The notes under the pieces were generated by a model. It did no database searches and had not been told where the DNA came from. It was given only the letters and a program-made list of their open reading frames with translations. From a virus (Duplodnaviria; Heunggongvirae; Uroviricota; Caudoviricetes), in IMG/VR virus record IMGVR_UViG_2869924733_000002: a DNA stretch of 23,140 nucleotides. One strand, 5' to 3'. Shown in pieces: positions 1 to 21,925 of the stretch (position 1 is its first letter; the number at the start of each line of letters is the position of its first letter). The position numbers and the translations under genes were made by a program.

Positions 1-819
1 ATGTGTCAGGTATTTGGTGTATCCAGGAGCGGTTATTACAACTGGGTACAGCATGAACCCTCAGACAGAAAACAAAGTGATGAGCGGCTAAAACTGGAGA
101 TTAAGGTGGCACATATCCGCACTCGCGAAACATATGGAACCCGGCGGCTCCAGACGGAGCTGGCAGAGAATGGCATCATCGTTGGTCGTGACCGACAGGC
201 ACGTCTTCGTAAGGAGCTAAGGCTACGCTGTAAGCAGAAACGCAAGTTCAGAGCGACTACGAACCCGAACCACAATCTGCCAGTTGCGCCAAATCTGCTG
301 AACCAGACGTTCGCTCCTACAGCACCAAATCAGGTCTGGGTGGCGGACCTGACGTATGTTGCCACACAGGAGGGATGGTTGTACCTCGCTGGCATCAAAG
401 ATGTTTATACGTGCGAAATTGTCGGCTACGCCATGGGAGAGCGCATGACAAAAGAGCTGACAGGTAAAGCCCTGTTTATGGCGCTCAGGAGCCAGCGCCC
501 ACCTGCCGGGCTAATCCACCACTCTGATCGAGGTTCACAGTACTGCGCATACGATTACCGGGTCATACAGGAGCAGTCTGGTCTGAAAACATCAATGTCG
601 CGTAAAGGTAACAGTTACGACAACGCTCCGATGGAAAGCTTCTGGGGAACGCTGAAAAATGAGAGCCTGAGCCACTATCGTTTTAATAACCGGGATGAAG
701 CCATCTCAGTAATACGGGAATACATTGAGATTTTCTACAATCGTCAGCGTCGTCACTCTCGTCTGGGGAATATCTCCCCGGCAGCCTTCAGGGAAAAATA
801 TCATCAGATGGCTGCTTAA
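1..819 (+). CDS. IS3-family transposase OrfB (IS600-like, tentative); DDE integrase core
   Basis: 272-aa ORF with the IS3-family catalytic-core pattern (NQVWVADLTYV...HSDRGSQY...YDNAPMESFWGTLKNE...). Starts at the window edge, so orfA and the left end of the IS are outside the window. Family call is from motif memory, not a search. Confidence 0.85.
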   Translation: MCQVFGVSRSGYYNWVQHEPSDRKQSDERLKLEIKVAHIRTRETYGTRRLQTELAENGIIVGRDRQARLRKELRLRCKQKRKFRATTNPNHNLPVAPNLLNQTFAPTAPNQVWVADLTYVATQEGWLYLAGIKDVYTCEIVGYAMGERMTKELTGKALFMALRSQRPPAGLIHHSDRGSQYCAYDYRVIQEQSGLKTSMSRKGNSYDNAPMESFWGTLKNESLSHYRFNNRDEAISVIREYIEIFYNRQRRHSRLGNISPAAFREKYHQMAA

Positions 820-862
820 AAAAAGAACAAATGGTAGTGTCCGCTATTGCCAGTACACCTCA
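1..862 (+). mobile_element. IS3-family insertion sequence, right-hand portion (truncated by window start)
   Basis: Transposase ORF ends at 819. The sequence ending at 862 (ggtagtgtccgctattgccagtacacctca) reverse-complements to TGAGGTGTACTGG..., the TG...CA terminus typical of IS3-family inverted repeats. Exact end is approximate. Confidence 0.6.
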
Positions 863-996
863 CACGCCATAACGGACTATATCGTTGGATATTACAGCGC
901 ACTAAGACCGCACGAATATAACGGTGGGTTACCCCCAAACGAATCGGAAAATCGATACTGGAAAAACTCTAACTCGGTGGCCAGTTTTTGTTGACC
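863..996 (+). mobile_element. IS911-like 3' remnant (last ~43 codons of an OrfB plus terminal inverted repeat)
   Basis: In frame from 863: [43 protein letters not shown]-stop, recalled as an IS911-type OrfB C-terminus. 961-996 reverse-complements to TGAAGTGGTCAACAAAAACTGGCCACCGAGTTAGAG, an IS3-family-style terminal IR. The IS600-like element sits inside it. Confidence 0.55.
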
Positions 997-1512
997 ACTT
1001 CAATATGCAACGCCGGGTGGCATGGATAAACCCGGAAGAGAGTAAATCAAACCGCGCAATCGGCGTTGCGCTGAATGATACTGCATGTCGCGTTTTGAAA
1101 AAACAAATCGGGAATCATCACCGTTGGGTATTTGTGTACAAGGAAAGCTGTACCAAACCAGACGGAACGAAAGCGCCAACAGTAAGGAAGATGCGGTATG
1201 ACGCAAACAGTAAGGAAGATGCGGTATGACGCAAACACAGCCTGGAAAGCGGCGCTGAGACGAGCTGGTATTGATGATTTCAGATTTCACGACTTGAGAC
1301 ACACCTGGGCAAGTTGGCTGGTTCAAGCCGGAGTCCCGTTGTCAGGGTTACAGGAAATGGGTGGCTGGGAGTCTATCGAAATGATTCGTCGATATGCTCA
1401 CCTCGCGCCTAATCACCTTACCGAACACGCACGGCAAATAGACTCGATTCTGAACCCATCGGTCCCAAATTTGTCCCAGTCAAAAAATAAGGAAGGTACT
1501 AATGATGTGTAA
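997..1512 (+). pseudogene. Tyrosine recombinase (phage integrase) 3' fragment, truncated by IS insertion and frameshifted
   Basis: Begins directly after the IS911-like IR. Contains the catalytic-domain motifs [16 protein letters not shown] and [10 protein letters not shown] (H-x-x-R and the Tyr nucleophile). The frame switches between track ORFs 924..1229 and 1198..1512 at the 28-bp duplication. Confidence 0.8.
1179..1236 (+). repeat. Perfect 28-bp tandem duplication (2 copies) inside the integrase remnant
   Basis: cagtaaggaagatgcggtatgacgcaaa occurs at 1180-1207 and again at 1208-1235. 28 is not a multiple of 3, so it shifts the frame and produces the repeated peptide VRKMRYDAN in both track ORFs. 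Confidence 0.9.
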
Positions 1513-1738
1513 CTTATTGATTTTTGGGATAATAGGAACAATACACATAGGCGATAAGCTTTGTTTTTGTTGCCTTTTTTATTGTTCATTTTTTATAGAT
1601 ACCCCCAAAAGTACCCCCATATCTTTTTCCGCCCCTGAAATTTGGTTGTTATTCATACAGCATATCAGGCGGTAACGCTCTCCCTTTAACCCACTTATTG
1701 TATGATAGTGCTATCCCACAATAAGGAATCAGCCAGCC

Positions 1739-3518: not shown

Positions 3519-3554
3519 TTCTGCCTCTCAGATTATATAGATAAGCAAAAAGGT

Positions 3555-3675
3555 GTTGGTTCAGTTGGTTCAGTTGGTTCAATTTGTAAAGAGTATTGTT
3601 TTTAAAAGAATTATTCGCAAAAAGTGAACCAACACACCCCATTTTTGAACCAACAAAAAGAGGCCGTGAACCAAC
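3555..3675. repeat. Iteron cluster: GTTGGTTCA x3 in tandem plus three inverted copies (TGAACCAAC) at 21-bp spacing
   Basis: Tandem 9-mers at 3555-3563, 3564-3572, 3573-3581. Inverted copies at 3625-3633, 3646-3654, 3667-3675, each 21 bp apart. The same module is present in reverse orientation at 13139-13249. Confidence 0.8.
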
Positions 3676-5780: not shown

Positions 5781-7879
5781 TTATTGAGCTTCTTTTTGTG
5801 ATGCCTGTGCGACTCTGGTGAGCGATTGTGTGACCGTACTGATCGCTCTGTCATATGCTGTGCTACCTTTTGGCGTATTTGCCAGACGTAACAAGGCATT
5901 TCGTATAACAGGGCTTTCGTATGCCTTCGCTGCTCCGCCTACGGCACCAGCAGCAGGAACAACAAACGCAGCCGTTTTTAGCATCCCCGCTAATACTGCT
6001 GCGTTTATGATGCCACCACCAACTAACAATCCATAAAGCTGCTGACCATTTAAGTTTTGAACGTTCGCTTTTGCCGCGTGTCTTGTATCGTTGAGGTATT
6101 TAATAACGCCGTCCAGTTCCTTTCCATGTACGCCTTTAAAGAAAGTTGCTGATTGCTTCCTGTTCCGGTGTAACGCATTAATAAACTTCTCAACACTGAT
6201 ATTTCCAGACGGATCAGTCGCCTTATCTACAGCATTCTGAACTATGGCTGCTCGTGCGTTTTGCCTACCATTGTCATCCAGAAGCCTGTAAAGCTGAGAA
6301 CGTTCTGATGGGCTTTGGCTAAAAACGAGTTTTGTTACATCCTCAGGCGTGGCCTTGCCGCTGGCTATTGCCTTTTGAACGCGCGTTCTTCCCATCATGT
6401 CATTGAATTTAGACCATGAGCGATCAACCCTTGCCATATTAATGGCTTCGTCTGCTCCAAGATTTTTGGCTACGGCTTTTTTCATATCCGCCGTATATGC
6501 CTTGTAGATAATATCGCTGGCTTTCTGGAGCGTATCTTTATCAACAGTGTCAGATGACGCCATAAATCGCTTTCGAAGATCGGTTCTGTTTTCCCTCGCC
6601 AGACGCAGGTCATTTGGTCCGCTGGTGATATCGTCTTTAAATTGCTGCAAGACTTTTACCGCGGCTCTATCCTGAGATTTGCCCGGGCGGCTTAACACGG
6701 CAATCTGATTGTCGATAGCTTTTACCGTGTTTGAGAGATCGACAGGGGTATCCCCCATAGCGTCAATTATGCGGTTATATCGCTTTCCTGCTGCCTCAAT
6801 GAATTTTTGTTGCCCTTTAGTCGCAGATTCATAAAGCTGTTTATCAGAAATGCCACCCAGACCATCGCTAAATGTTCTGACTAAATTTTCTCGTGCTTGT
6901 TGTTGATTCAGCCGATTCTTACCGGTTCCAAAAAAAGGAACTCTTTCGCCTAATGTCTGAGCCTGACTCTGCATAAAGGTTTTATCTTTCAGCATGTCAC
7001 TGGTCATTAACGGCAGATTTCTTTCCGATGCAAAGTCGACAGCAGCCTTTGCTTCAGGCGACATATCACCACGAACAGCCCTCGAAACCGCACTCGCTGT
7101 ATTTTCCAGCCCCTTACCAATACCACCAATGCCAGCAGAAATTACCGTTTGTAACGGATCAATATCTTCTCCACCAGCAAGGCTGGTGGCTCCCTGTAGT
7201 GCTAAATCTGTAGCTGCTGATTTTCCTATAGCACCAAGCACCGTTCCAGCCCTGCCCACTGGTGTAAACGCCAACGCATTAGCAAGAAACGAAGTCAGGT
7301 CTTGCGGTGATAAACCCGGCTTGTTCAGGGCATAATCACCTGATGGCAGAGAAACGATAGTATTCCCCTTCTCATCCTGCCTTAATGTCGCCCCCATTCC
7401 CTGAAGAATCTTTTCCTGAGACGCGTCAGAGCCGAAAAGTTGAGACCATCCAGCCTTTAGGGCATCCATGCTTAGTGAGTTCAATTCTGGGGCAGAGGTG
7501 ACATTTTGCAGTCTCTCCATCTCTGGAGTCATTCGGCTTTCGCCTGTTATAGCATCGCGCATCGCAGCCCCAAGACTGGCTCCCTGTTCTGCTGAACGCT
7601 CAAGCCCCTCTCTTTGCTGAGTAGCTAACTTTGCATACCCTGACGCAAGAGAATTATCAGATGATGTATGTTGAATATTTTGAGTTGCTGATTGGGATCG
7701 GTCTATTTCATTCGTTGATGGTAGTGGATAGGCAGCATAAAAAGCCTGCTTAGCCTGCTCTACACTTTCTCCGGCTTGCGGGGCAACGACTTCATTGAAG
7801 TATTGCTCCTGAGCCTGCGCTTTTTGTTCTGGTGCTAACGCCTGATACTGTGGAGAGGCGATAACATCTTTCCATGCTT
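5781..7879 (-). pseudogene. Large alpha-helical protein (about 701 aa when reconstructed), cut from its start codon by an IS insertion; DNA-ejection/internal-virion-protein-like (tentative)
   Basis: Track ORF 5781..7562 stays open upstream to 7879. Removing the IS (7882-8797) and one TA copy joins it to ATG GC at 8800-8804, giving MAKAWKDVIASPQYQ... in frame with a TAATG overlap to the upstream gene. Has a hydrophobic Gly/Ala-rich segment near the C-terminus. Confidence 0.6.
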
Positions 7880-7941
7880 TAGGCTGTGTCCCTTAATCAT
7901 CTGAGCTATAGTAACTGTCTGTTTACACAACATATTGAACT

Positions 7942-8391
7942 ATGGCTCGCTACGACCTTCCCGATGAGGCATGGACCATCATCAAGCCCCTGTTACCTCC
8001 TGAACCCGCCACACCACGGGCCGGACGCCCATGGGCTGAGCACCGTAAAATCATCAATGGCATGTTCTGGGTGTTATGTTCCGGTGCACCATGGCGCGAT
8101 TTACCCGAACGATATGGGTCATGGAAAACTGTTTATAACCGCTTTAACCGATGGTCAAAGTCAGGCGTGATTAATATTATTTTCAACAGGTTGCTTTCGC
8201 TACTTGATGCAAACGGCTTTATTGACTGGTCTGCCACCGCGCTGGATGGCAGTAATATCCGGGCGCTGAAATGTGCCGCCGGTGCTCAAAAAAACATCCC
8301 GATATCGACGGAGATAATGGGCCGGGTCGCTCTCGCGGCGGTTTTGGCACCAAAATCCATCTGGCAACAGACGGAAGTGGCCTCCCGTTAA
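7942..8391 (+). CDS. IS5-family transposase OrfA (N-terminal part)
   Basis: MARYDLPDEAWTIIKPLLPP... is the N-terminal domain typical of two-ORF IS5-family transposases. Overlaps OrfB in the -1 frame. Confidence 0.8.
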   Translation: MARYDLPDEAWTIIKPLLPPEPATPRAGRPWAEHRKIINGMFWVLCSGAPWRDLPERYGSWKTVYNRFNRWSKSGVINIIFNRLLSLLDANGFIDWSATALDGSNIRALKCAAGAQKNIPISTEIMGRVALAAVLAPKSIWQQTEVASR

Positions 8392-8786
8392 ATATCGTGC
8401 TAAGCCCCGGACAAGCTCATGAAAGCCAGTTCGCGCAACGACTTCTGGACGGGATTGGCGTTCAGCGTCAGAACGGCAGCATGAAACGCCGTGGACATGC
8501 GGTACTGGCTGATAAAGCGTATTCAGGGCGCGCATTGCGCAACGAGCTGAAAAATAACGGTATAAAGGCAGTAATCCCCCGAAAGTCAAATGAGAAAATG
8601 GCATCGGATGGACGTGCACAGCTTGATCGTGATGCGTACTGCAATCGTAATGTCGTTGAACGGTGCTTTGGGCGGCTGAAAGAATATCGCCGCATCGCCA
8701 CGCGTTACGACAAAACGGCGAGAAATTACCTGGCGATGGTGAAACTGGGCTGCATCCGACTCTTTTATCAACGCTTACGTAATTAA
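8271..8786 (+). CDS. IS5-family transposase OrfB (DDE domain); probably expressed as an OrfAB fusion by -1 frameshift
   Basis: DDE-type motifs (GGFGTKIHLATDGSGLP..., DKAYSG, VERCFGRLKEYRRIATRYDK). An A7 run at 8288-8294 lies in the OrfA/OrfB overlap. Confidence 0.8.
   Translation: MCRRCSKKHPDIDGDNGPGRSRGGFGTKIHLATDGSGLPLNIVLSPGQAHESQFAQRLLDGIGVQRQNGSMKRRGHAVLADKAYSGRALRNELKNNGIKAVIPRKSNEKMASDGRAQLDRDAYCNRNVVERCFGRLKEYRRIATRYDKTARNYLAMVKLGCIRLFYQRLRN
8288..8294 (+). other. Candidate programmed -1 ribosomal frameshift heptamer (AAAAAAA) in the IS5-family transposase
   Basis: OrfA reads caa aaa aac; OrfB reads tca aaa aaa cat, shifted by -1 over the same A-run. Confidence 0.5.
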
Positions 8787-9887
8787 GGGACACAGCCTAG
8801 CCATTAATCACCCCATAGTGAAGAAAAGTTACTGCTGGCTGCTGGCTGTGATACCTGCTCAGATTGCGGCAATGTCTGCGACGAAGAAGAAGTTCCTCTG
8901 TCAACTGCTGAAATAACCCGCAAAGCATCATAAGCTCGACCAGAAGCAGCTTTCAGCGAATTGAACTGGTTTTCCATCTTCCGGCGCTTGGTATCAATGG
9001 TTTTTGTGGAGTCGCCAGGCTGAGGGAAATACATTTGATAATATTTTGACATTTCAGCAGGTGCGATAGCTGCCCCTGTTTCCTGACGGAGTATTGCCAT
9101 TATTGCGTCATTAGCATTAACAACGTATTGCTGCTCTGTTGGGCTGAGCGTTAAGTTAGCCAGCGTCCCATTACCCAAAGCATTATTAATGATCGCCACT
9201 CGCTGTGGGCTAAGCTGGTCTTTCAGTGTATCTATTGAATCAAGAGCATCCCTAACCCTGTATGCAAATCCAGCAGCTTTTTTAGCCCCTTCTGGCGACT
9301 TTTCCATGATCTTTTGGGCTGTTGGCAAAGCTATTGGACGAAACCCATCTCCAGATATTGGCTGGTTTAGTTTTCCCTGCTCTTCACTTCCGTCTGTGTA
9401 GTATTTTGTGACAGTGCCATCATCGTTTTCTCTAACACTCATTAATTTTTTGGCGTTTGTATTAATTCCAGCCGCTGCCGCAAATGCCGCCGCCCCCTCT
9501 GGATCCGCCTTTAACATTTGAGCGTACTGATTGTAATTCTGCATTGCTGCTGTTGGTGCATATGCTGACGTTAACGCATTTGCTCGGCTAATATCCTGCC
9601 CTCTCGCCTGAAGTGCTTCGCCAGCCTGATTGCTGCGGATTGTCTCTGCCAACTTGCCACGCTCAATATCCCGACCTTCCATTTGATCTTTGATATCGAA
9701 ATACTTCTCATGACCGAGAGAAAACAGTGCCATACTACCAGCAAGCCGCTGGAATCCCTGTGGATCATTAACATGCATTTCGGCAACAGACTCAGGAGAA
9801 ATTCCCAAGCGACGCATTTCATCTTCGTTATCTGCTATGAATTTTCCAAATGCCCCAGTTCCGAGCGAAGATGCGATTTGAGCACTA

Positions 9888-11040
9888 AATAGCTGCGCTT
9901 AATACCGCTACACTTTTGCCAGTCCATGTTTGCCTCCGGGGAATGGGCTGACGGTTTCCATAAAATGGCGAACTTTTTTCAACAGTTGCCACATTGAGCG
10001 GCACTGATGATTACGCGTTATTGTGTCGTGAAGTGCCTGCCATAGCCGTTCAACATGATTCACCCATGGCGAGTAAACCGGCTGATAAATGACCCTGAAC
10101 TTCGGGTTCTCCTTCAGCCAGCTCTGTGTTTCCCGGCTTTTGTGGATAATGTAGTTGTCCACGATCAGCGTGATGGTTTTCGCCCGACGGTATGTCGCTT
10201 TAAGCCGCTTCAGCAGGCTGATGAACAGCGCCGAACTTTTGCTGTTGCCGCCCACATAGCTGACTTTACCTGTCCCGCTGTGCAGCGCTCCGGCCAGATA
10301 ATATTTTTCATTCTGTCCCGGCGTGACCACCCGTTTTTGCTGTCCGCGCAGTTGCCAGTCCGCACCGATTTTGGGATGAAGATGGATATCCACTTCATCT
10401 TCATAAAAGACCGGATGCTCTGCGCTGCATTCGTCCAGTGCTTTATGGATTGCTGCCATCTTTTCATCTTTATGCGGGTCACGGATACGCAGAGTTGGCG
10501 CAGCCCTTCGCCACACAATCCCCGCAGACGGCAACCAGCGGCGAACGGTTCCGGCATTTAACTGGCAACCGGTTATCTCATTGATTTTTATTGCCAGCAG
10601 TTCTGTACTCCAGCGTGAACGCTGGTAGCCAAAGTCGCCGGGAGAATGTTTTACCAGCTCACGTAACAGTGTGCAGATATGCTCAAACGGCCAGCGACGG
10701 GCACGCCCGGCAGGTAATGATTTCAGTCCCTCAACACCCGACTGCGTGAACCAGTTAATCCAGCGTCCAACAGAGGAACGGGCGCAGCAGAGCGTTCTGG
10801 CAACGTCGCTGACACGGTCGCCCCGGTGCAGCATCAGCATGGCAGTCAGTCTGCGGGCATAATTTTTATCGTGTGTTTTATGGATGGCTTTCTGCATCAG
10901 GCGTCGTTCGTCACGGGAAATTGGTGCTATGATCGGCATTGCTCAGTCCGGTTGGTGATTTGTTTTGATTTGGCGATTGATCAGATCGCACAATCCGGGC
11001 TAAGTTCCCTCAAAATGATCTACTATTCCGCGCAGCTATT
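9888..11040 (-). mobile_element. IS630 (1153 bp) inserted at a CTAG target with TA duplication
   Basis: Terminal inverted repeats: aatagctgcgc at 9888-9898 and its reverse complement gcgcagctatt at 11030-11040. TA at 9886-9887 and 11041-11042. Length is exactly 1153 bp, matching the recalled IS630 size. Confidence 0.9.
9908..10939 (-). CDS. IS630-family transposase (343 aa)
   Basis: Full-length 343-aa ORF inside the IS630 boundaries, recognised as the Tc1/mariner-like IS630 transposase. Confidence 0.9.
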   Translation of the reverse strand: MPIIAPISRDERRLMQKAIHKTHDKNYARRLTAMLMLHRGDRVSDVARTLCCARSSVGRWINWFTQSGVEGLKSLPAGRARRWPFEHICTLLRELVKHSPGDFGYQRSRWSTELLAIKINEITGCQLNAGTVRRWLPSAGIVWRRAAPTLRIRDPHKDEKMAAIHKALDECSAEHPVFYEDEVDIHLHPKIGADWQLRGQQKRVVTPGQNEKYYLAGALHSGTGKVSYVGGNSKSSALFISLLKRLKATYRRAKTITLIVDNYIIHKSRETQSWLKENPKFRVIYQPVYSPWVNHVERLWQALHDTITRNHQCRSMWQLLKKVRHFMETVSPFPGGKHGLAKV

Positions 11041-11379
11041 TAGTCGCAAGATGACCAATAGAATTTCTCTGGTCGTCATCAATAAAGCCCATCCCTTTCT
11101 GAACGCTTTCAAATTCTTCTGGATACTCAGAAATAAGACTGCGCATTTTGTTTCTGTCTCCAGACTCAAAAGCCCCGGCATATGCTTTCTGAAACTCTGC
11201 TTTACGCTGTTGTTGACGTGCCTGCTGATTAATCTCAGCAACGCCTCTTAGCCCCTGTAGCGCCATTAAACCTACGTTTGGGTGCTGCTGATACTGCACA
11301 GGCTGAGGAACGGAAGAACGAGGAGCATTATCATTTTGCGGTGCCATGCTAGGCAGCCCGCCAAGTTGCCATGTCGCCA

Positions 11380-12057
11380 TTAGAATCCAAGCCCCCCAAC
11401 AAGACCAATAAGCCCACCACCAATAGCCCCGGCGACATTACCTATACCCGGAACAACGGAACCAAGTTGCGCACCCGCTAAAGCGCCTGATGCCGCCCCA
11501 CCAATACCACGCGCAAGACTGGATGGCTGCTGCGCCTGACCTGCACGAATAGCGCCAAGCCCCTGCAAGAGTTGCCCGGTATTATTGGCGTAGTTTTGCC
11601 CTGCTGTTGCCTGCCCTGATGCCGCATTCATCCCGACATTTAGCAGGTTTCCATAATTTTGCATTTGCCCACTGAGCCAATTGTTATAAAGCATGGGCGC
11701 AATGGAAGATAACTGGTTACTGGTAGCTGTTGAGCCAAGCCCCCCGGTAGCTTCTGCTGAGACAAGGTTCTGATAACGGGCCTGATCTGCCTGTGTTTTA
11801 TATAAACCAGAACCAAAGAAATCATTCGCGGCTTTATTCTGCCCTTCCAGAGTCATCAGTCCTTGCAGTTGTTGTAAAGCAGGCAATCCGACTTCTGCAT
11901 ACGGCTTGAGATTATTCATCACCGTATTCCACTGCTCGCGCTGCAAATCAATTGCCTGCTGCTGGGCCTTCGCCTGAGCTTTAGAGGCACCACCATCACC
12001 GCCTTTTTCGTATACGGCACGATTGAGATGTTTATGAGCTATATGGGTAATTAACAT
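11380..12057 (-). CDS. Hypothetical protein (225 aa) with Gly/Ala-rich glycine-zipper C-terminus; ejection-protein-like (tentative)
   Basis: C-terminal ...GIGGAASGALAGAQLGSVVPGIGNVAGAIGGGLIGLVGGLGF. Stop overlaps the next start (TAATG); start overlaps the upstream gene by 7 nt. Confidence 0.65.
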   Translation of the reverse strand: MLITHIAHKHLNRAVYEKGGDGGASKAQAKAQQQAIDLQREQWNTVMNNLKPYAEVGLPALQQLQGLMTLEGQNKAANDFFGSGLYKTQADQARYQNLVSAEATGGLGSTATSNQLSSIAPMLYNNWLSGQMQNYGNLLNVGMNAASGQATAGQNYANNTGQLLQGLGAIRAGQAQQPSSLARGIGGAASGALAGAQLGSVVPGIGNVAGAIGGGLIGLVGGLGF

Positions 12058-12512
12058 TCGCTGAATTCCTTATATTGTTGCCGAGTTAACTGATAAAGCG
12101 TTACGCCGACGGGTTTACCACATCTGATATAAGCATCATCAAGGTGACCAACACGGGTAGCGCCAAGCAAACGGATAATTGCCCGTCCATATTTCGTGGT
12201 GTCAGGAACCATAGTGATGCTGTTAAGGAATGGTGAGTTTTCGAGAAGCCATTTGCAGAATAATCGATGCCCTTGCAGTGCATATTCACCACGGAATCCG
12301 GGGTCGTACACCGCATGGCATTCAACAACGCTATGCCAGAAGTTACGCACTTCATGAACGCCAGCCAGCACTAATCCTTCGTAGATGCCGAGATATACCG
12401 CATCAGGCTTGATGTAGTACGTGTGCCCCGGCTCAACAATATTTTCGGTATTGCCTGGCTCGTTAAGAAAGGCCTGTAATCGCACAGGGTTATCAATAAA
12501 TTTTAGTTCCAT
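12051..12512 (-). CDS. Hypothetical protein (153 aa), first large gene of the operon
   Basis: ATG at 12512 lies 16 bp after the stop of the 53-aa ORF. Protein-like composition; no family recognised. Confidence 0.6.
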   Translation of the reverse strand: MELKFIDNPVRLQAFLNEPGNTENIVEPGHTYYIKPDAVYLGIYEGLVLAGVHEVRNFWHSVVECHAVYDPGFRGEYALQGHRLFCKWLLENSPFLNSITMVPDTTKYGRAIIRLLGATRVGHLDDAYIRCGKPVGVTLYQLTRQQYKEFSEC

Positions 12513-12690: not shown

Positions 12691-13138
12691 AACGCCCCCT
12701 TATAACTGTATAAAACAACAGTTATTATAGTTTCACAAATCGCAATATTCATCATCGTAATTGCAGAATATGAAACAAATAGCACAAAAAAATGCCACCG
12801 CTCAGTAGCTGGTGGCGTCGTTCTGTGTGTCAGGTTTTGACAGGTTTTTTATGGACTCTAAAAACTATATTTATGGTGTCGCATTACTCTTCACGGCAGG
12901 CGCTTTTCAGTTCTGCCCTTGCTTCTGGCTCCATTGGTAATTTGATTCGCGATCAGCTATGCGGATGGTTTGCTGAACAGGCATAACAACTTCTCAGAGG
13001 CTGTTTTTTGAACTACGAAAATTTCGTAGTGCTCACTTTCAAAAACGTCACGCCCTTGTACACAGGATTTTACGAAAGTCTCGTAAAACACTCTCTGATG
13101 CCAGCCAGGTGTTGTGCGCATCAATTCAGTCACATTGT

Positions 13139-13249
13139 GTTGGTTCAAAATACCGTGTTGTTGGTTCAGTGTTGGTTCAATAAAAAGAATAAAATCCTTA
13201 TAAAACAATACCATTTACAAATTGAACCAACTGAACCAACTGAACCAAC
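13139..13249. repeat. Iteron cluster immediately 3' of the primase-helicase gene (crr/ori-like)
   Basis: GTTGGTTCA at 13139-13147, 13160-13168, 13171-13179, then TGAACCAAC x3 in tandem at 13223-13249. Reverse complement of the module at 3555-3675, including an identical core of about 45 bp. Confidence 0.8.
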
Positions 13250-13274
13250 ACCTTTTCTACGCACATGAAGAAGC

Positions 13275-18001: not shown

Positions 18002-19061
18002 TGGTTGCCCCCGTTTTTCCTGGCATTTCGCCACCTTCCAGCAGGAAATGAACGTCACGAACGGCGAGATCCAATATCGCGAGTAACGCCTTCAGTCTTT
18101 CGTCTCGTGAGGGAGAGTTGCTCACCAGAATGTCGTTAATCACTTCTGTCAGTGTGATGATCTGGCTTGTGCGTTCGAGGGGATCCATATGCACATCGTA
18201 GGTTTTAATCATGTGCCACCTCCATGCGGATACGACCAGCAAAAAAGCAGATGTGATCGCGCACCAGAGAACGGCGAGCATCGCGTTCAGACTCGGCAGC
18301 AATATGATGAATTTTGGCGGTAATTGTCGGGCAATCGCGGCGAACTGCGGCGATAATCCAGATAAATTGCGGTTTTTGGGTAGTGGTAGTAGCCAGCATG
18401 TGGCAGCCTCCTTGTACTGGGAGTTCTTCCCACCACCGGAGCTGCGAAACTCGCTGGTGGTGGACTGAACAGAGTTCGCAGTACCGGCGTACAAGGAAAC
18501 CGGCCAGCCTTTCGGCTGCCCTGTCCAGCCCACCATAATTTTGCAAGCGACGCGGATTATAACCGCATCACTGAAAAAAGTGTGAGTCTGGCTAACGGCA
18601 CAAAAAAAGACGCTCGGCGCGTCATGTGTCGCCTCGTACATTTCCGGGCTGCGAAACCCGGCACCCGTTTTATGAGGTGCCTTATAACCATAAACCGTGT
18701 TGCCGCATAACGGCAAGCTCTTTTTTATGGACTCCGAAAACTCACTATTGGAAGCACCAGATGCACAATACATCGCGCTCATTTCGTTAACGTCGCGCGT
18801 GTGGACGAAGGTTTTTGTGGAGTCACTACGCGAGCAGAGAAAGCCATCTACGACCAGAAATTCTCTGGCGCAGCCGCCGACCTTCTCAACGCTAACACCA
18901 TCGACCGTAATTTCTGACATAGTTAAGGCATCCGCTCCCACCACCAGAAAATGATAAACTTTGCTTGTATCTGCTGTATTAATGCCAGACTTTGCTGTCA
19001 TATTGCTGGATTTTGGCGACATACCAGCCAGTGAAAATATCTTCTTCTGGACGGTTAGCAT
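17994..19061 (-). CDS. Gene with a strong start at 19061; the 355-codon open frame has an ambiguous 3' end (see findings)
   Basis: ATG at 19061 with GGAGGT SD, 1 nt after the upstream stop. The N-terminal 150 or so residues look protein-like. The frame then stays open through a terminator-like hairpin (18601-18623), a structured region and an internal SD+ATG at 18212 (MIKTYDVH..., 72 aa). Confidence 0.4.
18205..18399 (-). CDS. Small hypothetical protein (64 aa) in an alternative frame
   Basis: AAGGAGG sits 7 nt upstream of the ATG at 18399 ([19 protein letters not shown]...). Its stop overlaps the internal ATG at 18212. Confidence 0.4.
   Translation of the reverse strand: MLATTTTQKPQFIWIIAAVRRDCPTITAKIHHIAAESERDARRSLVRDHICFFAGRIRMEVAHD
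18601..18623 (-). terminator. Putative intrinsic terminator or attenuator inside the long open frame
   Basis: Minus strand: GACGC-GCCGA-GCGTC hairpin followed by TTTTTTT. A TGA in another frame sits just before it. Confidence 0.35.
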
Positions 19062-20901: not shown

Positions 20902-21783
20902 CTATAAATCTCTACTCATTAAATCAGATATTTTTATCAAGCTCATTTCTCTGTCTTTGTTTACATAAAGCTGAAGCAAGCGGGTGTATCTCTCGCTTAT
21001 AGATTCAAGTGCAAAAGGCTTTATTGATTCCTTAATAGCCTGCGTATCTTTCGGATCATCACTAAAAACCAAGGCAGAAATCATCGGATTGCTCACTTCC
21101 TTACCTGACTTCTCACCCCAAATCAGCAGATCAACAATAGGTATCACTCTATTAGATATCAACTTCTGAAGGGTCTTTAATCCAATCCTTTTCTGAGCGA
21201 CATGCTCTCTCTCTGGTACTTTTAACTCTTTTCGCCATAGAGGTAGAAGGTGAGTCAGGCTGGTAATAATTTCGTCATCAGTGGCGTCATCTAAATCTAT
21301 AGAAACGAGTATGATGTTAGGGGAACAATTACTTAGGTTTCCAGTAACACTCGCAAGCATAGCGTTTGCCTTGAGGTAGCAATCCTCTTCGTCTCTTTTA
21401 AAAAAGCCTTGATCTATCGATGAGAAAGAGTACATGGCCAGCTCTGAAAATGTTACTGGACTAACCCCCATAGCTGAAGATAATGAGGGAAGATCATCGT
21501 ACTCATTTCTTAATGATGGGGCTTCATCATTTACTTTGCGAATAAATTCTTCGACCTCTTCCTCTTCTTCATTGAGAATGGTTAGGTTAGGATCGCCCGA
21601 AAAAATCCTTTCATATTTTATATCGTACTCTTCTTTGAATATAGCAGTGTCATCTTTTGCATGACGCAATAAAAAATCGCGCCACTCTAATTCTTGAATC
21701 AAGTCCGGCAAGGTTAAATCATTTAAAAATTCATAATTACTAATATCAAACCATGCTAAATCTTGTTTTTTGGCTCTCACCAT
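20902..21783 (-). CDS. Hypothetical acidic protein (293 aa), AT-rich cargo gene between integrase and alpA
   Basis: Visibly AT-richer than its neighbours. G-rich SD before the ATG at 21783. Acidic stretch ILNEEEEEVEEF. No recognisable family. Confidence 0.65.
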   Translation of the reverse strand: MVRAKKQDLAWFDISNYEFLNDLTLPDLIQELEWRDFLLRHAKDDTAIFKEEYDIKYERIFSGDPNLTILNEEEEEVEEFIRKVNDEAPSLRNEYDDLPSLSSAMGVSPVTFSELAMYSFSSIDQGFFKRDEEDCYLKANAMLASVTGNLSNCSPNIILVSIDLDDATDDEIITSLTHLLPLWRKELKVPEREHVAQKRIGLKTLQKLISNRVIPIVDLLIWGEKSGKEVSNPMISALVFSDDPKDTQAIKESIKPFALESISERYTRLLQLYVNKDREMSLIKISDLMSRDL

Positions 21784-21925
21784 ACGCCACCCCGCGCCCC
21801 TAATTCTGACGGCTATGCCAGCCCGTAGGGGTGTACGGGTTTTCGGGGATCAGCCTAGACATAGCCTATTCTTTGTTCGTCTACATAAGTCTACTACCAT
21901 TGCTTAACACGGTCTATTCATACAG

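Follow-up and report, generated by a model that had tools for sequence, protein, structure and literature searches.

IS630 in a predicted gp20-type ejection gene on a probable EcCIMP1-family satellite island of Shigella dysenteriae

The 23,140-nt stretch of DNA analysed here (IMG/VR record IMGVR_UViG_2869924733_000002, hereafter the window) contains an insertion sequence with a piece of coding sequence on either side. The locus raises the question of whether the two flanks were once a single gene and, if so, what that gene encoded, on what kind of mobile element it lay, and whether its operon was still functional when the insertion arrived. A preliminary description, made from the letters alone, had proposed that an IS630 copy interrupts a 473-codon gene and can be reversed exactly, that the insertion is recent, and that the operon was functional until then. 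The element, its target and the identity of the flanks are borne out by the comparisons reported below; the statements on age and on operon function are revised. Coordinates of the features are collected in Table 1.

Table 1. Features of the interrupted cassette, the two insertion sequences and the island end, in window coordinates
Feature	Position	Strand	Remarks
att core, TCCTATTATC on minus strand, right end of island	1528..1537	(-)	same core and homology boundary as EcCIMP1
gp16-like ejection-protein gene, codon 3 to stop	5781..7881	(-)	Pfam Phage_P22_gp16; first 7 nt (ATGGCTA) at 8798-8804, beyond ISSfl7
ISSfl7 (IS5 family), 916 bp	7882..8797	(+)	TA duplicated at 7880-7881 and 8798-8799
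ISSfl7 transposase frames, two, overlapping	7942-8391 and 8271-8786		NCBIfam transpos_IS5_3
gp20-like gene, 3' part, codons 114-473 + stop	8804..9887	(-)	
TA target-site duplication, left copy	9886..9887	(.)	
IS630 copy, 1153 bp	9888..11040	(-)	co-oriented with interrupted gene
Left terminal inverted repeat of IS630, AATAGCTGCGCTTAATA	9888..9904	(.)	
IS630 transposase, 343 aa, open frame intact	9908..10939	(-)	NCBIfam transpos_IS630 and Pfam DDE_3/HTH
Right terminal inverted repeat of IS630, TATTCCGCGCAGCTATT	11024..11040	(.)	
TA target-site duplication, right copy	11041..11042	(.)	
114-aa ORF from truncated gp20-like gene	11036-11380	(-)	junction-specific product ...GHLATK
gp20-like gene, 5' part, codons 1-113	11041..11380	(-)	reads ...GHLAT+K, TAG stop in IS end
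gp7-like ejection-protein gene, 225 aa, intact	11380..12057	(-)	Pfam P22_gp7; stop overlaps gp20-like start (TAATG)
DUF2824 gene, 153 aa, intact	12051..12512	(-)	first in cassette

The IS630 copy and its reversal

Over its positions 1-1153 the element shares 99.5-99.8% nucleotide identity (best, 99.8%) with annotated copies, the references being RefSeq copies named 'IS630-like element IS630 family transposase'. Its transposase scores 258.5 bits against the NCBIfam model transpos_IS630 (cut-off 100) and 86 bits against Pfam DDE_3, with HTH_23/29/32 matches at the N-terminus. The locus reads ...GAGCAC-TA-(AATAGCTGCGC...GCGCAGCTATT)-TA-GTCGCAAG..., the part in parentheses being IS630, and the ends inside the element pair at 11 of 11 bases and then at 15 of 17. 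A repeat finder reports a longer inverted repeat (9884-9904 versus 11024-11044, 21 nt, 90%), which runs 4 nt past IS630 because the CTAG target is itself palindromic. Edges, transposase and 99.8% identity all agree with the original identification of the element as a 1153-bp IS630 with a TA duplication in CTAG.

The edges can also be read from copies elsewhere. In three other IS630 copies, located at unrelated E. coli loci and differing from the present copy by 2-5 substitutions, homology to the window stops at the identical two bases, and each copy is flanked as cTA|IS|TAg. Loci other than the present one thus confirm both the edges and the CTAG/TA rule. The copy in the window likewise matches IS630 of Shigella sonnei (IS630/Tc1/mariner family) in its length of 1153 bp, in its single 343-aa DDE_3 transposase with an N-terminal HTH, in its short terminal inverted repeats, and in the use and duplication of the TA of CTAG; nothing of substance separates the two, the host here being S. 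dysenteriae and not S. sonnei.

Target choice follows the same rule. The reconstructed gene contains 66 TA dinucleotides, yet only two CTAG sites, and CTAG occurs nine times in the whole window, as against about 27 (Markov) to about 90 (base composition) expected. With CTAG so scarce and TA so plentiful in the target, the site is attributable to the known preference of IS630 and not to chance. That preference was described by Tenzen & Ohtsubo (1991), as cited in PMC2170065 and PMC6811581. A closely comparable case is the insertion of IS630 into fliC of S. sonnei (Nat Commun 2019, PMC6811581), which involves the same element, the same motif and, likewise, a gene inactivation that marks a lineage in Shigella. 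The fliC case differs in gene and species, and no subsequent IS-mediated deletion is seen at the present locus.

Excision in silico of IS630 together with one TA leaves CACTAGTC / GAGCACTAGTCGCAAG and a single reading frame, 473 codons long before its stop (1422 nt in all). The intact allele in E. coli reads CACTAGTC at the insertion site, and the restored gene is 100% identical in nucleotide sequence, over all 1422 nt, to the intact genes encoding WP_001585369.1 (473 aa, 'phage DNA ejection protein'). Exact matches were found in at least 17 E. coli chromosomes among those listed, and 260 records match at 99% or more. Since these intact homologues span both flanks as one frame, the flanks belong to a single gene and not to two, which was the point that alignment to uninterrupted homologues had been proposed to check. 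With 0 differences in 1422 nt from the intact E. coli copies, the proposal that the interrupted gene bears no other lesion is upheld as well.

The reversal thus holds exactly on paper: excision restores CACTAGTC and the single 473-codon gene. As a natural event it is another matter. IS630-family elements transpose by cut-and-paste, and enzymatic excision is for that reason not expected to regenerate CTAG cleanly or to restore the gene. E. coli and Shigella are not known to have end-joining, and a precise loss of IS630 would take slippage across a 2-bp repeat. The claim that the insertion can be reversed exactly is consequently best kept as a valid reconstruction whose natural occurrence would be unlikely.

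The interrupted gene and its cassette

The protein encoded by the restored gene matches Pfam PF16928 (Inj_translocase) with 197.2 bits (cut-off 29.7) over residues 34-213, a domain that IS630 cuts in two, with truncation after residue 113. It also matches PHROG 917 over its full length (E = 2.5e-112), a family labelled 'released from the phage upon host infection'. In tblastn searches, gene 20 of phage P22 aligned at 37.7% identity over residues 1-223, and the only full-length phage match was the 'DNA/protein translocase' of APSE (53% over 93% of the length); across the phage collection searched, no phage carried a protein more than 60% identical. By these homologies, the interrupted gene is a predicted P22 gp20-type DNA-ejection protein gene. 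It shares with the ejection (E) proteins P22 gp20 and Sf6 gp12 the Inj_translocase domain and the place between gp7-like and gp16-like genes. It differs from P22 gp20 in that the 38% identity covers the N-terminal half only, and in being borne by a satellite that lacks capsid and tail genes. Many database entries for the family, as seen in the cluster of the 3' fragment, are marked 'partial', and some pipelines call the protein an 'acyltransferase', apparently a wrong name for a gp20-type ejection protein that has spread between entries.

The cassette runs in the order DUF2824, gp7-like, gp20-like and gp16-like, so that the interrupted gene stands third among four. The overlapping stop and start codons (TAATG) point to a tight, translationally coupled four-gene operon. 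The gp7-like gene is an exact nucleotide match to its copy in E. coli 6409. The gp16-like gene, which follows the interrupted one, carries an insertion of its own, found by aligning the window to an intact island copy. This second element shares 99.9% identity with a copy annotated as 'IS5-like element ISSfl7', has the inverted ends GGCTGTGTCCCTTAAT, and sits after nucleotide 7 (ATGGCTA|) of the gp16-like gene, at codon 2/3. After its removal, the gp16-like gene runs to 2106 nt (701 aa), with one mismatch and no indel relative to WP_001585370.1. A look-up of the 693-aa gp16-like fragment found no entry on record.

From this arrangement we infer that IS630 would abolish the function of the gp20-like protein and would be polar on the downstream gp16-like gene, and that the insertions were presumably neutral. 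For annotation, two corrections are useful: the fragments at 8804-9887 and 11041-11380 should be recorded as one pseudogene, and the neighbouring gene as disrupted too.

The island that carries the cassette

The whole of the window from 1528 to 23140 corresponds to a phage-inducible chromosomal island (PICI) of the EcCIMP1 family. The att core TCCTATTATC coincides with the boundary of homology, and the tRNA-side end of the island lies just beyond the window. E. coli copies of the island that are 99.9% identical to it, about 20 kb long, are located at tRNA-Thr/proA. Its genes comprise an integrase, AlpA, an antirepressor, Ash, a TOPRIM/DUF927 primase, the four ejection-type genes, a second AlpA-like gene, PerC and PRiA4_ORF3. 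Capsid, tail and lysis genes are absent from the island, as judged from the annotations of the near-identical E. coli copies together with Pfam labels. A full P22-like prophage was considered as the context and ruled out on this absence and on the PICI match.

EcCIMP1 of E. coli MP1 is a PICI mobilised by phage Kapi1, and its authors put the ejection-type genes forward as no more than candidates for a part in packaging or transfer (ISME J 2025, PMC11773190). The island backbone in the window is 98.4-99.4% identical in nucleotide sequence to that element. The two share the att core and the gene order int, alpA, antirepressor, ash, primase, DUF2824/'DNA transfer' genes, alpA_1, PerC and PRiA4_ORF3. 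The family site lies in tRNA-Thr between proA and yagU, and the E. coli relatives of the present island are likewise integrated next to proA/tRNA-Thr. They depart from each other in the int-alpA spacer and in the ejection-gene segment: the ejection genes of EcCIMP1 in MP1 encode 439 and 906 aa, as opposed to 473 and 701 aa here, and represent a different allele, and of the two only the copy in the window shows a DUF6387 gene added between int and alpA, along with the two IS insertions. Helper-phage-dependent excision and transfer have been demonstrated for EcCIMP1 with Kapi1. On these comparisons the operon is assigned to a phage satellite (PICI) of the EcCIMP1 family, and not to a phage or prophage. 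The satellite encodes P22-type gp7/gp20/gp16-like ejection proteins without capsid or tail genes.

With both insertion sequences taken out in silico, none of the annotated island genes has an indel relative to the intact E. coli genes, and most are exact matches. IS630 and ISSfl7 are therefore the island's only lesions. Against E. coli 6409, the 19.5 kb that remain without the insertion sequences show about 10 substitutions (about 99.95% identity) and a 1-base frameshift, the latter being a lesion in 6409.

Several further features of the window were noted. Rfam matches above the gathering score were obtained for C4 antisense RNA, isrK and int-alpA RNA at 18453-18540 (-), 18603-18680 (-) and 21798-21865 (-), respectively; the first two lie within or beside the ash gene, which suggests that the island has a P4-like RNA immunity region. 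An inverted repeat pair at 3548-3658 and 13135-13256 (65 nt at 91% plus an adjoining 39 nt) contains many iterons of the GTTGGTTCA type, and one of its arms lies directly downstream of the primase gene. We take this arrangement to resemble the ori/crr arrangement of satellite P4, by analogy with which the pair may be the replication origin of the island. The slot between integrase and alpA that holds the DUF6387 gene (293 aa, 20902-21783, minus strand) is variable: E. coli 6409 has the gene, whereas EcCIMP1 of MP1 and CFSAN061761 lack it. This slot may be a position for accessory or defence cargo. Past the island end, in window positions 1-1512, an IS3-family transposase orfB that the window edge truncates (1-819) is followed by a short IS tail and, at 1198-1512, by a C-terminal fragment of another tyrosine integrase; this fragment contains a tandem duplication (about 28 bp, near 1181-1236). 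The segment has the appearance of what is left of an adjacent island, a situation also seen in MP1.

Lineage, order of the insertions and recurrent lesions

The window is 100% identical to CP027027.1; a search of the literature for the accession numbers returned no mention. The left and the right IS630 junction are both present in three NCBI assemblies and also in contigs built from the short reads of at least 20 runs, and a 1137-bp contig reaching from an IS630 end to an ISSfl7 end recurs in at least 20 samples. In principle, the placement of IS630 could stem from the collapse or misjoining of a repeat during long-read assembly, and one of the two complete assemblies (L002) does contain numerous single-base indels of the kind left by uncorrected long reads. 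Such an origin is extremely improbable, given that independent short-read assemblies reproduce both junctions, with contigs that stop a few bases inside IS630 on one side, that the 1137-bp contig is bounded by the ends of both elements in so many samples, and that the TA duplication is perfect. An assembly artefact was accordingly rejected, and the insertion is treated below as genuine.

The 114-aa product specific to the junction has entries from the three NCBI assemblies and from several sequencing runs, and the allele ending in ...GHLATK is held in RefSeq as WP_241553131.1 [Shigella dysenteriae]; attribution to this species rests on the RefSeq protein name of the junction-specific allele. 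Among 5,426 complete E. coli genomes, neither IS630 nor ISSfl7 was found at its respective site. In a set with a single genome for each species, exact scanning for the IS630 junction returned no match, and a protein-based scan returned one species representative with the intact gene at 100%. Because the junction is shared by many isolates and is so named in RefSeq, the insertion can be regarded as fixed in a lineage of Shigella dysenteriae. Its description as recent needs to be qualified in this light. The insertion is young, as the island remains about 99.95% identical to that of E. coli 6409, but it cannot be called private to one strain, being present in many isolates. Both insertions postdate the split of the island from its near-identical E. 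coli copies and in that sense are recent, though fixed.

The proposal that the operon was functional until IS630 arrived is not supported by the comparison. The next gene, gp16-like, has its own ISSfl7, and every assembly with the IS630 junction that reaches far enough also has the ISSfl7 junction. As either insertion may have come first, functionality up to the IS630 event does not follow. ISSfl7 could have entered the gp16-like gene first, in which case the operon was already defective and IS630 a neutral event in a dead cassette; we regard this sequence of events as a serious possibility that falls just short of probable. It would fit with the position of ISSfl7 at codon 2/3 of the adjacent gene, with the joint occurrence of both elements in all assemblies reaching that far, and with the fact that no IS630-only state was seen among the 5,426 complete E. 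coli genomes or in exact-protein look-ups (the latter made with the 324-aa and 337-aa versions of the 3' fragment). Set against it, an ISSfl7-only state was equally missing from those 5,426 genomes, though one in draft assemblies would have escaped the look-ups.

Individual contigs considered as examples of IS630 alone were discarded. L016 has another IS end at window position 9870, L012, L013 and L015 have deletions, and L014 starts too far downstream to inform. In L016, at positions 1-28, the different IS-like end joins window position 9870 within the same gp20-like gene, 17 bp from the IS630 site; we take this end to resemble the IS629/IS3-family terminal repeat TGAACCGCCCCGGGAATCCTGGAGAC. 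The deletions, at about 5951-6001 in L012 and L013 and about 3491-3850 in L015, remove the 5' part of the gp20-like gene. Lesions were also seen in the gp16-like gene of E. coli, which is split by IS66 in strains EC26 and 22AR0118 and has a 1-bp frameshift in strain 6409.

These observations bear on a further reading, namely that selection, rather than neutral decay, favours loss of the ejection cassette, for example if it is costly or interfering without a helper phage. Two insertion sequences within about 3.5 kb of an otherwise fully intact island of about 20 kb would be in keeping with such selection, as would the independent lesions elsewhere (the other IS end in L016, the deletions in L012, L013 and L015, the IS66 insertions and the 6409 frameshift). 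However, the cassette holds two of the nine CTAG sites of the window, which makes IS630 there unsurprising; most E. coli copies are intact, as the 260 records at 99% or more attest; and the very many IS copies in Shigella genomes lead one to expect double hits. We judge selection for loss to be unlikely, and the wider idea that inactivation repeatedly strikes the ejection cassette of EcCIMP1-type satellites in lineages of Escherichia and Shigella to be, if anything, slightly more doubtful.

Our preferred account is one of ordinary insertion and decay. A standard IS630, moving by cut-and-paste with its DDE transposase, would have entered one of the two CTAG sites in a 473-codon gp20-type gene, part of a four-gene cassette on an EcCIMP1-family island presumably integrated at tRNA-Thr next to proA, in a S. 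dysenteriae lineage. The protein would be truncated within its conserved Inj_translocase domain, with a probable polar effect downstream, and the gp16-like gene would have been knocked out separately by ISSfl7. Both insertions would then reflect the typical IS expansion and gene decay of Shigella, after divergence from the E. coli copies of the island. As a whole, from the CTAG target and the EcCIMP1-family island to the S. dysenteriae host and the second hit by ISSfl7, we hold this account to be very probably correct. Its components are all known already, namely IS630 with its target preference, the gp20 and EcCIMP1 families, and the decay that insertion sequences drive in Shigella, and the disrupted allele is present in public annotation.

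The weight of the locus is accordingly limited to that of a clean, verifiable example of the IS630 CTAG rule, and the pair of IS630 and ISSfl7 provides a lineage marker for a Shigella dysenteriae clone. Should the cassette prove after all to be lost recurrently, this would suggest that the satellite's ejection proteins are costly or counter-selected in hosts without a helper phage, and would bear on why the satellite carries ejection proteins of its own. For the recently described EcCIMP1 family itself, the locus indicates a satellite that is present in Shigella and decaying there.
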